64,000 nt of DNA from a virus (taxonomy: Duplodnaviria > Heunggongvirae > Uroviricota > Caudoviricetes): IMG/VR virus record IMGVR_UViG_647533160_000003; one strand, 5' to 3'. This document shows positions 20,285 to 56,933 of this stretch, one piece after another. The notes under the pieces are model-generated. The model searched no databases. It had not been told where the DNA came from and was given only the letters and a program-made list of their open reading frames with translations. The translations under genes were made by a program, and so were the position numbers. How positions within the stretch are numbered: the stretch's first letter is position 1; each line of letters starts with the position of its first letter.

Positions 20285-20953
20285 ATGACCAAGATCTTTG
20301 TGGTTGGCGGCACAAAGGGCGGGCCTGGCAAATCCACCGTTGCCCAGCAAATTGCCGTTTGCCTGAAAGTCAAAAAGAAGAAGAAGGTTTATATCACCGA
20401 TATAGATATTCAGCGCACGACAACGAGCTGGTGTGAAGACCGTCGACAGAACGAAGACCTTGAGCTGATTCCTTTTGCATACGTTCAGGATGACATCATT
20501 AAGCACCTAAAATCGCTTCAGGGTAGAGCTGAGTATGTAGTGGTAGATGCTGGTGGCTTCGACTCCGAAATTCAGCGACAAGCGATGCTGATGGCTGACG
20601 TTATCATTATCCCGCTGCGTCCTAAGCGTCGTGATTTGAAATCTTTACGTGACATCGATCCTATTATCGACAATGTTCGCAATGTAAACGATAAAGTGAA
20701 GGTCCGCGCGGTCATGAACCAGTGCCCGGCTTTGCCATCACAAGTGTCTCGCATTCTGGCGGCTAAAGAGATTGTCGAGACGTTTGGCATCGAGTCTGCG
20801 CCTGTCAATCTATATAACCGCAACGTCTACGATGATGCGGAAGAGTCTGGTCGTTCTATCTTTGAAATGACCGGTAGCGAGCGCGACAAAAAGGCGGAAG
20901 CCGAGTTTGAAGAATTTGTAGATTATCTGTTGAGTCTGGAGGAAGAAGAATAA
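20285..20953 (+). CDS. parA: ParA-type partition ATPase (222 aa)
   Basis: Deviant Walker A GGTKGGPGKST near N-terminus; small size typical of type Ib ParA; followed by small RHH-like partner gene. Confidence 0.8.
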   Translation: MTKIFVVGGTKGGPGKSTVAQQIAVCLKVKKKKKVYITDIDIQRTTTSWCEDRRQNEDLELIPFAYVQDDIIKHLKSLQGRAEYVVVDAGGFDSEIQRQAMLMADVIIIPLRPKRRDLKSLRDIDPIIDNVRNVNDKVKVRAVMNQCPALPSQVSRILAAKEIVETFGIESAPVNLYNRNVYDDAEESGRSIFEMTGSERDKKAEAEFEEFVDYLLSLEEEE

Positions 20954-21312
20954 TGTCCATGAAAATGGGTGACCTAGCAAAGCGCAAAGAGCCTGATGCA
21001 CCGGCTAAGAACACAACTCCTTTGCGCCAACCAGTCAGACCACAGGGACGCCCGACTCGTGGCAAAGAGAAAATTAAAAGCCGCACAATGTCACTGGAAG
21101 ACGAATACTTCGAACTGCTGGAGATGATGAAGTTCATCCCTCGCTTCGAGAAATTCACCCGCTCTGATGTGATTCGTGCTGCTATTTTCCATCTGGCAGA
21201 GAAGTCGCCGCAGGAAATCGAGGATATCGTGAAACTTAACGAGGCGATCACTGCTGCCGACGTCACGATGCGTACCGATGAAATCAAACGCGAGTTGATG
21301 AAGAAAGGTTAA
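20953..21312 (+). CDS. ParG/ParB-like ribbon-helix-helix partition partner
   Basis: Start overlaps parA stop (TAATG); basic N-terminal tail then RHH-like segment. Confidence 0.5.
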   Translation: MSMKMGDLAKRKEPDAPAKNTTPLRQPVRPQGRPTRGKEKIKSRTMSLEDEYFELLEMMKFIPRFEKFTRSDVIRAAIFHLAEKSPQEIEDIVKLNEAITAADVTMRTDEIKRELMKKG

Positions 21313-21356
21313 TTTTATTGAGGTGCTGCTTGGCACCTCTTTCTATAGGTTCCCTA

Positions 21357-21908
21357 ATGCTCTACAAATATATTGGAAGTGAAGATTCGCAAAAAGTGTT
21401 ACGTAACCTCAAACGGTTTGTAGAGGACGGCACTATCTCTGCTAGCGCACCTTCTTCATTCAACGACCCATCAGAGTTCAAAGTTTCGATAACGATGGGA
21501 GGTACAGAAGTGGAGCGCCGGAAACACTTTGAAGACAATGGATGTAAGGATTTTTCCTTTGAAGACTGGGATGCTGTAGCTCCTGAAGCTGCAAAATCGT
21601 TGGCTGTGGATTTGCGGAAAGAATCATTAGGGGCTTTTGGTGTGGTGTGCTTGTCACCAAACGAAGATAACATCTTGATGTGGTCACATTACTCAGTGTC
21701 GCATAAAGGTTTCTGCATAGGCTTTGATGATGATTTTGTTACCTCTATTGAGGGGTATCACAGCTTTGATAATGTGAAATATATACCTTCTGTTCCCGTG
21801 TTCGATGAAGTTACAGATGAGTTTAAGGTACTTTTTGATAAGCTCTTTTTCTACAAGCACGAATGCTGGAAATATGAGGAAGAACAAAGGGTTATTACTA
21901 AAAAATAG
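21357..21908 (+). CDS. DUF2971-like protein, reading frame interrupted at an A6 run
   Basis: N-terminal MLYKYIGS...SFNDPSEF signature typical of DUF2971; frame stops at TAG 21906-21908 inside ACTAAAAAATAG while the -1 frame stays open to 22075, which would restore the usual ~250-aa family length. Confidence 0.5.
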   Translation: MLYKYIGSEDSQKVLRNLKRFVEDGTISASAPSSFNDPSEFKVSITMGGTEVERRKHFEDNGCKDFSFEDWDAVAPEAAKSLAVDLRKESLGAFGVVCLSPNEDNILMWSHYSVSHKGFCIGFDDDFVTSIEGYHSFDNVKYIPSVPVFDEVTDEFKVLFDKLFFYKHECWKYEEEQRVITKK

Positions 21909-22141
21909 GCGCTCAGGCATTTGATAAGAAATATATTAGAGAGATCATTCTTGGGTATAACGTTTCTCCTGAAGTAGAAGAATATGCCCGGACACAGCTA
22001 GACACGAGCATCGAGGTTTACAAAATGAGTACACCTGATGATGGTTATCTTCTTGTCAAAGAAAAGCTGAAGTAGCTCCAGACTTTCCTCAAATGATTAT
22101 GTTGGGCGCTTTTCTTATTGAACTGGTTAGTGAGGCTAATA

Positions 22142-23314
22142 ATGGATTTGTTCTCAACCAAAATAGCAAAAAACAAGCTGCACGAATCTTTTAAACAGAT
22201 TTATCAAGATAATACATATGCTCCAGTAAGAGAAGTGATACAGTCGTGGGGGCGTGGGTTACTGGAGCGTAGCGGTGAGCAGACTAAATTCGTTAAAGAG
22301 TTTCAGACAACCTTCAATTCCGCCTTATGGGAATTGTATCTGAACGAAATGTTTATTCGTCTCGATTATTCTGTCGACTACACAAAAGACAGTCCCGATT
22401 TCTGTGTTACTACACCGTCAGGCTACCAGTTTAACGTCGAAGCTGTGATATCAGATCGGCCACATAATCCACCTGCAGGTGCTCTTTTTAGCGAATCAAA
22501 ATTCAAACATCAATCAACGCTAAAATTAATCGGAAAAATCAAAGACAAACATGATCTTTTTACAGGAGTTAATGGCAAAAAATTCCCGTACTCTACGATG
22601 TCTCATGTAGTTAATAAGCCGTTTGTTCTGGCGCTTGCACCCTTTGACTCCGATTTATCATTGTCTCAAAATAACACAATCATCAATCGAGTGTTGTTTG
22701 GCATTGAGGAACCTACCACCAGAAATTTGGTGACTGGCAGCCAAACTAAAGTTACCTCAATCAAAAAGAATGAAGACGTTGAAATTCCATTAGGTATATT
22801 TACTAACGACTCATATAAAGAAATAAGTGCGGTTATTTTCTCCACCACCGGCACTTTTGGAAAAGCCGTGGTTCAAAGCGGTATCGGTAGATATGTAAGG
22901 TCAACACGATATCGAGCCATTGATGTGAATGATTTCATCGCCAATGAAGGGATGAAAAACGAGGGAAAGCACACACAAAGGATAGGACCTGATCATTTCA
23001 TCACTACATATCGGCATTTTTTAAATAACGAAGTCACTGGTGCGGATATTGTAGTTTGCCATTCCACTGCTCATGAAGAGACGCACTTTGACGGCCTTCA
23101 TATTTACTACAATCCTTTTGCGACAGTGCCACTGGACAGAAATATTTTCTTCCCCCCAGAGATAACTCATAATTTTTACGATATGGAAAAAGAACAGTCT
23201 GTTCAGAATCATCCTGATGGAGCGCTGGTATCTAGACAGGTTTTTGAACCAACTAGAGCACATTTTAGGTATATCATGAAACATTGGTTTCCAGGCTTTC
23301 TAAAAGATGTTTAA
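22142..23314 (+). CDS. hypothetical protein (approx 390 aa)
   Basis: Long ORF; ATG 22142 preferred over TTG 22118; no motif recognised. Confidence 0.45.
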   Translation: MDLFSTKIAKNKLHESFKQIYQDNTYAPVREVIQSWGRGLLERSGEQTKFVKEFQTTFNSALWELYLNEMFIRLDYSVDYTKDSPDFCVTTPSGYQFNVEAVISDRPHNPPAGALFSESKFKHQSTLKLIGKIKDKHDLFTGVNGKKFPYSTMSHVVNKPFVLALAPFDSDLSLSQNNTIINRVLFGIEEPTTRNLVTGSQTKVTSIKKNEDVEIPLGIFTNDSYKEISAVIFSTTGTFGKAVVQSGIGRYVRSTRYRAIDVNDFIANEGMKNEGKHTQRIGPDHFITTYRHFLNNEVTGADIVVCHSTAHEETHFDGLHIYYNPFATVPLDRNIFFPPEITHNFYDMEKEQSVQNHPDGALVSRQVFEPTRAHFRYIMKHWFPGFLKDV

Positions 23315-56612: not shown

Positions 56613-56632
56613 GTGGACACCTTTGTCATTCA

Positions 56633-56734
56633 ACCGCTGACAGCATACTTGATTTGCCGCTGGCAGCATACCAAAAACAGTTGGCAGCATACGGCGAACC
56701 GTTGACAGACTATCAATTACCGCTGGCAGCATAC
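56633..56734. repeat. iterons upstream of repA (3 good plus 2 degenerate copies)
   Basis: ACCGCTGACAGCATAC 56633-56648, GCCGCTGGCAGCATAC 56655-56670, ACCGCTGGCAGCATAC 56719-56734, plus degenerate copies near 56681 and 56698. Confidence 0.75.
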
Positions 56735-56774
56735 ATGAACATGGCTTCAGACCAGTCGTGGCGCGGCTTACAGC

Positions 56775-56847
56775 GATCGGGGATCTTATTTGATCTATAC
56801 AAGGATCTATCTATGGATCTCTTTATTAGGATCTATCCTGTGGATAT
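56775..56847. promoter_or_regulatory. origin-like region: six GATC sites in GGATCT-type short repeats plus DnaA-box-like sequence
   Basis: GATC at 56775, 56782, 56792, 56804, 56816 and 56830; complement of 56838-56846 is ATATCCACA (8/9 to TTATCCACA); adjacent to upstream iterons. Confidence 0.55.
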
Positions 56848-56933
56848 GTGAATAATTAAAACAGGCATTTACTACCTTCGGCGCACCTGGTGAGTTATCG
56901 TTGCCTCGGCTAACAATCACAGAAAAATGACAT

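Follow-up and report, generated by a model that had tools for sequence, protein, structure and literature searches.

A 64-kb stretch of viral DNA as a probable segment of a pSLy3-like Escherichia coli phage-plasmid with a P1-like arrangement of its replicon

The stretch of 64,000 nucleotides (nt) from the IMG/VR record IMGVR_UViG_647533160_000003, analysed here over its whole length and called the window below, very probably represents 64 kilobases (kb) of a phage-plasmid of ~110 kb from Escherichia coli, which belongs to the pSLy3-like subgroup of the SSU5 supergroup and exists both as a free plasmid and as an inducible virus. The element is already known: near-identical copies are present in public databases, and publications already cover the family as well as its extrachromosomal lifestyle and inducibility. 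A sequence-only reading of the same DNA had proposed a probable phage-plasmid, and this proposal is borne out by the near-identity to circular plasmids of ~110 kb and to deposited phage-plasmids, as well as by the plasmid-only distribution of the replication and partition loci. The gene calls of that reading were tested with the PHROGs, Pfam and NCBIfam profile libraries, and the window was scanned for open reading frames (ORFs), composition and tRNAs.

According to the nucleotide database comparison, the entire window aligns to circular, non-mobilizable E. coli plasmids of ~110 kb. The best match, at 99-99.9% identity, is pLH09-a-C (NZ_CP100547, 111,271 bp), with 99.8-99.98% over positions 7000-56612, the masked stretch excepted, and 98.9% across the first 20 kb; the window differs from it by one frameshift and the stretch masked with N. 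Such a comparison had been suggested as a check by the sequence-only reading, and it returned plasmids as the best-covering records, together with two phage-plasmids that share the backbone: pSLy3 (CP015915), which is collinear and ~96% identical, and Cyrano (pLF82, OV696614), which is ~95-96% identical. The replicons of the nearest relatives measure 108-114 kb; the window covers 64 kb only, and a size range of 85-134 kb is given for pSLy3-type replicons (PMC12977533). pSLy3 itself is a circular plasmid of 114,472 bp, and its description in 2016 recognised none of the known rep genes (PMC5009973); elements of the pSLy3 type are characteristic of E. coli (PMC12977533). The assignment to the pSLy3 subgroup (Pfeifer et al. 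2021; tyPPing scheme) is made by proxy, on the grounds of ~96% nucleotide identity to and collinearity with the backbone of the reference pSLy3. Both pSLy3 and pLH09-a-C share with the window the collinear gene order, the ParA partner, the integrase proteins, the four tRNAs and the same rep-iteron cassette (98.2% identical to that of pSLy3), and accessory islands are the only differences; in particular, pSLy3 lacks the PD-T7-5 and PDC-S31 genes and the AbiG island.

In Cyrano, the tail, lysis, ParA and partner, replisome and recombination genes are conserved in the same order, but KacT and HicAB toxin-antitoxin cargo takes the place of other genes of the window. Moreover, the RecA ORF of Cyrano (Cyrano locus 66-2405) comprises 779 amino acids (aa) compared to 357 aa in the window, and this difference points to the insertion of an intein or homing endonuclease in Cyrano. 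The annotation of another relative includes a LAGLIDADG endonuclease. The SSU5-related elements form the largest supergroup of phage-plasmids and are defined as such, and the Salmonella phage SSU5 and the S. Typhi plasmid pHCM2 have the overall architecture in common with the window (PMC7969092). However, they belong to a different subgroup (SSU5_pHCM2), their RepA is 48% identical, and much of their accessory content is different; at the nucleotide level, SSU5 is 79% identical over 42% of the tested window segment 20000-44000.

The extrachromosomal state was found in the relatives throughout. In our survey of 5,426 complete E. coli genomes, to which all genome counts refer, the rep-iteron locus occurs at 221 places, the parA locus at 262 places in 261 genomes, and the alternative, Cyrano-type rep locus at 172 places, all of them in plasmids and none in a chromosome. 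The first 25 kb of the window also gives chromosomal matches, which are partial only, and the best-covering records among the matches listed are plasmids. Chromosomal flanks or matches confined to prophages, which the sequence-only reading had named as evidence that would contradict it, were looked for; instead, both ends of the window fall within the element, one in the gene for the tape measure protein and the other in that for NrdA, and no chromosomal genes were found in the 64 kb. Our results agree with the published observation that, across thousands of genomes, SSU5/pSLy3-type elements were exclusively extrachromosomal (PMC9600943). For Cyrano, a plasmid state at 5.5 copies per cell, virions detected by quantitative PCR and electron microscopy, and a 39-fold induction by ciprofloxacin have been described, in a paper that shows virion production and reports no infection assay (PMC9928086).

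The plasmid nature of the element is also apparent from its own initiator and origin, which comprise a Rep_3-family protein, 17 iterons, a cluster of GATC sites and DnaA-like boxes (Table 1). The Rep protein is 98-99.7% identical to Rep of the phages PhiR41_1 and CMS-2020a, 83-85% identical to that of Klebsiella SSU5-like phages, 48% identical to RepA of SSU5/Cyrano, and 43% identical to RepA of P1/P7 (tblastn over residues 72-349, E 7e-64). Typing of the replicon as IncFIB(pHCM2) was considered but dropped in view of the 48% identity to the SSU5 RepA and of the report that no known rep gene was detected in pSLy3 (PMC5009973). The motif CCGCTGACAGCATA has 15 matches with at most two mismatches, all on the plus strand and all within 54986-56733, compared to 0.36 expected by chance in the window and to a maximum of 2 in any shuffle, and a looser pattern yields 17 copies flanking rep, 12 of them downstream and 5 at its 5' end, in accordance with the iteron-flanked RepA origin noted by the sequence-only reading. 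The 5' end of the long Rep ORF lies among the five origin iterons, and the ORF contains an in-frame ATG at 56612, corresponding to Met41, and several deposited Rep records start at residue 41. This ATG is probably the true start of Rep, and therefore the iterons would cover the rep promoter, as in P1. The two DnaA-box-like 9-mers are not above chance level in the window, and it is their position alone that is telling.

The order of parts is the same as in the oriR/incC-repA-incA region of P1. In the P1 record, nine incA iterons are followed by repA, by five incC iterons located 21 bp apart over the repA promoter, by five Dam sites and by a DnaA site; in the window, a long iteron array is likewise succeeded by rep, the five origin iterons, the Dam sites and the DnaA box(es). 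The iterons themselves differ in sequence from those of P1, and 12 of them are located downstream of the gene, compared to 9 in P1. Because of the matching layout of the origin and the 43% identity of Rep to the P1/P7 RepA, we propose by analogy that the replicon of the window functions in the manner of the P1 R replicon, from which autoregulation of rep and copy control of the handcuffing type would also be inferred.

Comparison of the window with Cyrano reveals a difference confined to this region. In the alignment of window positions 54945-56745 with the Cyrano locus 5150-7250, rep and both iteron arrays are replaced, while on either side the two sequences exceed 97% identity, up to ~54945 to the left and again from ~56930 to the right, and the segment with the GATC sites and DnaA boxes is semi-conserved. 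The iterons of Cyrano are of the CTCTATAGTGGAT type, unlike CCGCTGACAGCATA in the window. The window-type rep allele is present in 156 of the genomes surveyed and the Cyrano-type allele in 129, both always plasmid-borne; the Cyrano-type cassette is thus also restricted to plasmids, and therefore the two can be regarded as alleles at one locus. It is tempting to consider them as the outcome of an exchange of a 1.8-kb cassette, including rep and both sets of iterons, within the conserved pSLy3/Cyrano backbone, with the GATC/DnaA half of the origin retained. We put this forward tentatively, jointly with the idea discussed below that the ParA partner is a possible new family of centromere-binding proteins, as a pair of proposals with slightly less than an even chance of holding. 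The two rep alleles would presumably represent two incompatibility types, and if this is true, two sibling phage-plasmids could share one cell.

The partition locus includes a small Walker-type ParA, covered end to end by the NF041546 ParA_partition profile (E 2e-33, 115 bits compared to the NCBI cutoff of 180). Its deviant Walker A motif KGGPGKST spans residues 11-18, and since it starts so early, there is no N-terminal DNA-binding domain, as in type Ib proteins. The start of the downstream partner gene overlaps the stop codon of parA by one base. Homologs of the partner are essentially confined to SSU5-type elements of Escherichia, Salmonella, Klebsiella and Citrobacter, and they share an invariant N-terminal MGDLAK motif followed by a basic stretch of low complexity (a disordered basic N-terminus) and a helical C-terminal core with the conserved pattern SRTMSxEDE...FTRSDVIRAAI, which reads as strand-helix-helix-like. 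The sequence-only reading had described this locus as a type Ib-like ParA with a ribbon-helix-helix (RHH) partner; the ParA part stands, while for the fold of the partner a single RHH-family match was found, to aCcr1, which is weak and below threshold (E 2e-4, 21 bits compared to the cutoff of 60). Searches for the partner retrieved no Pfam family at E up to 1, and no match among the PDB sequences either with phmmer or with a profile, and the hhalign comparison with CopG, ParG and omega sequences was not significant. An AlphaFold2 model of the monomer, based on 12 homologs, has low confidence (pLDDT 64) and is all-helical from residue 48; it gave no Foldseek match in the PDB. The label "RelE/ParE putative toxin" attached to the Cyrano counterpart (CYRAN_29) was rejected because there is no ParE/RelE match and the model is all-helical. 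With its conserved MGDLAK motif and no Pfam family, the partner is a possible member of a family of centromere-binding proteins that has yet to be described. A search for centromere repeats around parA (19900-22200) yielded short two-copy repeats only and nothing convincing; one palindromic TATATCACATATA is located upstream of parA.

Despite the similarity of the replicons, the element cannot be assigned to the P1 group: it encodes a lambda-type siphovirus tail and not the tail of the P1 myovirus, and its par genes are located 34 kb from rep and encode a ParA of 222 aa with a partner of 119 aa, whereas P1 has a type Ia ParA of 398 aa with ParB, adjoining the replicon. Thus, of the resemblances named in the sequence-only reading, that to SSU5 holds, with the pSLy3-like subgroup as the closer affiliation, and that to P1 does not, the replicon alone being P1-like. 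The nucleotide-level match to P7 and D6 is limited to the tRNA cluster.

Of the virion genes, the window contains those for the tail and for lysis. The tape measure protein of Cyrano, whose tail is ~259 nm long, has 1525 aa (PMC9928086). The lambda-type tail tip module (4613..11842, plus strand) matched phrog_14, 18, 30, 32 and 31 with E from 1e-36 to 0, and the collinear genes of Cyrano bear the annotations M, L, K, I and J; the lysis cassette (17327..18772, plus strand) matched phrog_873, 1026 and 1275. The sequence-only reading, which gave 20285-56850 as the span of its observation, had listed the tape measure, M/L/K/I/J-like tail, tail fibre and lysis genes, and these are confirmed by PHROGs and, for the lysis cassette, also by the Cyrano annotation, at positions 5-18772 and hence outside that interval. 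The virion structural and packaging complement is found in the relatives, where the terminase, portal, major capsid and neck genes sit in parts of pLH09-a-C and pSLy3 beyond the window. Also beyond the window, pLH09-a-C (80630-83921 of its record) carries the chromosomal-type genes metG and apbC inside the phage-plasmid.

Table 1. Features of the window with their positions and the evidence for their identification.
Feature	Position	Strand	Evidence or remark
Tail tape measure protein, 1521 aa	5..4570	+	phrog_1292, end-to-end match, 2887 bits
M-like tail gene	4613-4948	+	PHROGs
L-like tail gene	4998-5729	+	PHROGs
K-like C40 peptidase tail gene	5695-6519	+	PHROGs
I-like tail gene	6507-7100	+	PHROGs
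J-like tail gene (central tail fiber J)	7112-11842	+	phrog_31
Side tail fibre, 1385 aa	11936..16093	+	phrog_3299, 6722, 22609
Holin	17327-17662	+	PHROGs; collinear Cyrano annotation
Endolysin, transglycosylase-like	17649-18368	+	PHROGs; collinear Cyrano annotation
Rz-like spanin	18370-18621	+	Collinear Cyrano annotation Rz
Rz1-like spanin	within 18464-18772	+	Collinear Cyrano annotation Rz1
Small ParA-family partition ATPase, 222 aa, type Ib-like	20285..20953	+	AAA_31, MipZ, CbiA, ParA_partition
ParA partner, putative centromere-binding protein, 119 aa	20953..21312	+	Translationally coupled to parA
DUF2971/PDC-S31 defence gene, truncated	21318-21908	+	PADLOC PDC-S31, E 3e-32
PD-T7-5 homolog, defence candidate	22118-23314	+	PADLOC, E 1.5e-139
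DnaB-like helicase	24296-25636	+	DnaB_C, E 4e-13
Probable DnaG-type primase	25646-26899	+	DNAG_N and Toprim_2 just below cutoff; TIGR01391, E 5e-9
ATP-dependent DNA ligase	30126..31448	+	PF01068, E 9e-13
tRNA cluster Asn, Tyr, Thr, Ser	32874..33431	+	ARAGORN, 4; Rfam confirms 3 of 4; same four annotated in pSLy3
403-aa partner of AbiGi-like gene	33610-34821	-	Faint HSDR_N-like nuclease signal
AbiGi-like gene	34848-35714	-	PADLOC AbiGi, E 5e-47; PF10899
Tyrosine recombinase ("integrase")	38035-39138	+	PF00589, E 3e-10
Helix-turn-helix (HTH) regulator, convergent, end overlaps recombinase by 6 bases	39133-39525	-	HTH_19
CobT-like VWA protein and CobS-like AAA_5 ATPase	40082..43521	+	CobT_C, E 3e-83; AAA_5, E 1e-15
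DnaE-type DNA polymerase III alpha subunit	43702..47220	+	PF07733, PF17657, PF14579, PF02811
UvsY-like protein	48274-48705	+	Label from Cyrano annotation alone
T4 gp32-type single-stranded DNA-binding protein (SSB)	48823-49851	+	gp32, E 2e-67
5'-3' exonuclease	49913-50857	+	5_3_exonuc_N, E 8e-25
RecA, 357 aa	51126-52199	+	RecA, E 2e-42
Downstream iteron array, 12 copies, clusters of 7 and 5	54986-55238 and 55401-55517 (array 54986..55517)	+	Position of P1 incA
Rep_3-family initiator, long ORF of 404 aa	55518..56732	-	PF01051, E 5e-9
Origin core iterons, 5 copies, spacing 21-23 bp	56634-56733	+	Motif pattern
6 GATC sites	56775-56833		Densest GATC cluster in window, Poisson P 2e-6 per 90-bp window
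Two adjacent DnaA-box-like 9-mers	56839-56855	-	Sequence match
SbcD-like nuclease	57833-58918	+	Metallophos, E 8e-10
SbcC-like ATPase	59148-61064	+	AAA_23, SMC_N, SbcC_Walker_B
RuvC-like Holliday junction resolvase	61807..62376	+	phrog_159, E 3e-57
NrdA, class Ia ribonucleotide reductase alpha, 5' two-thirds	62450..64000	+	Open frame to window end; nrdA in relatives

The window could also represent an element of phage-plasmid ancestry that is now a plasmid only, i.e. a defective or domesticated form that replicates and segregates but makes no infectious virions. We consider this unlikely, although several observations point in that direction. In E. coli 166F4, treatment with mitomycin C yielded no packaged DNA of the resident pSLy3-type element (PMC9600943; PMC12977533), the genes for head and packaging lie beyond the window, and a gene frameshifted near 21905 as well as a gap of 625 N that hides part of one ORF are present, therefore small lesions do occur in the window. 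On the other hand, the frameshift hits an accessory defence gene, every tail and lysis ORF of the window is full length with respect to the PHROG profiles, and the backbone is ~96% identical to that of Cyrano, which makes virions (PMC9928086). At the other extreme, a strictly lytic phage equipped with plasmid-like genes would be in line with the complete replisome encoded by the element and with the first description of SSU5 as a virulent phage (PMC5427195). However, sequenced isolates harbour hundreds of near-identical copies as resident plasmids, the ParA locus and a full P1-type iteron replicon are conserved, and Cyrano is stably carried as a plasmid (PMC9928086), so that we find a strictly lytic lifestyle very hard to credit. 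Equally improbable is an integrated prophage inserted by the tyrosine recombinase, in which the plasmid-like genes would be mere relics. An integrase-family gene does adjoin an HTH regulator, and the record of one Klebsiella relative bears an "attR" label, but this explanation is already largely refuted by the 64 kb free of chromosomal genes, by the rep, parA and alternative rep loci that occupy no chromosomal place in the genomes surveyed, and by the records covering most of the window, all of which are plasmids of ~110 kb.

Certain points nonetheless weigh against the identification of the window as an inducible phage-plasmid. Apart from the 166F4 element, they include the restriction of the virion module in the window to its tail and lysis part, the presence of a tyrosine recombinase gene, and the ParA partner, for which neither a recognisable family nor, in 19900-22200, an array of centromere repeats was found. 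The plasmid state is predicted from the relatives; virion production by this particular copy is predicted from its genes and from the relatives, and the mechanisms of copy control and partition are modelled on those of better known systems.

Under the phage-plasmid interpretation, the life cycle can be envisaged as follows. During lysogeny, the element would be kept as a circular plasmid of low copy number, whose origin would fire when Rep binds the five closely spaced iterons beside the cluster of Dam sites and the DnaA boxes, while the 12 downstream iterons, if they act as the P1 layout suggests, would titrate Rep and exert handcuffing-type copy control. The small ParA and its 119-aa partner would segregate the copies, and the probable role of the tyrosine recombinase is in the resolution of plasmid multimers and not in integration of the element. 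Upon induction, with DNA damage as the likely trigger, as shown for the relative Cyrano, the genome would be amplified by its own DnaB-like helicase, primase, DnaE, ligase, gp32-type SSB, RecA with the UvsY-like mediator, SbcCD, RuvC and NrdA. Siphovirus particles with a lambda-type tail tip would then be assembled, and the holin, endolysin and spanins would lyse the cell.

Most of the replication and recombination genes listed by the sequence-only reading were recovered by the profile searches, namely the helicase, DnaE, ligase, RecA, SbcCD and RuvC. The SSB is found as well, as a T4 gp32-type protein, and NrdA is present but cut by the end of the window; the primase is annotated as such in Cyrano and pSLy3, and the profile evidence for it is weak. 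An SPFH protein was confirmed in the window with the Pfam and NCBIfam libraries. The Cyrano counterparts of the recombinase and of the HTH regulator are annotated as integrase and putative repressor, respectively, and the latter is expressed in lysogens (PMC9928086). The CobT-like/CobS-like pair is conserved across the family beside DnaE.

The Rfam scan of the window detected tRNAs only. The tRNA cluster is 91-93% identical to those of the unrelated phages P7, D6 and Ro157c2YLVW, and 79% identical to those of N4-like phages. It adjoins the AbiGi island (33610..35714), which has a GC content of 0.34 and is absent from Cyrano and pSLy3. These two elements also hold other genes at the spot just downstream of the par genes, where the window carries the PDC-S31 and PD-T7-5 genes. 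Compared to pLH09-a-C, the PDC-S31 gene has a 1-nt indel near 21905, and its product is shortened to 196 aa from 240 aa. A 60-mer covering the window-specific indel had no match in the genome and viral contig collections searched, and the set of E. coli genomes contains no record that is 100% identical. The run of 625 N at 36372-36996 interrupts an ORF on the minus strand (36366-37826), and pLH09-a-C has 185 bp in its place; an apparent trough of 26% GC at 36-38 kb results in part from this run and was rejected as a biological feature.

The additions made by this analysis are modest, comprising the explicit dissection of the P1-like origin, the proposed exchange of the rep-iteron cassette as compared to Cyrano and SSU5, and the cargo of defence genes, and they are otherwise accompanied by no new biology. 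SSU5/pSLy3-type phage-plasmids are common in E. coli, as the parA locus in 261 of the complete genomes indicates; the label of cryptic plasmid is often wrongly attached to them, and resistance genes, e.g. blaCTX-M-15, can be part of their cargo. Therefore, recognising the window as a phage-plasmid matters for both annotation and surveillance.

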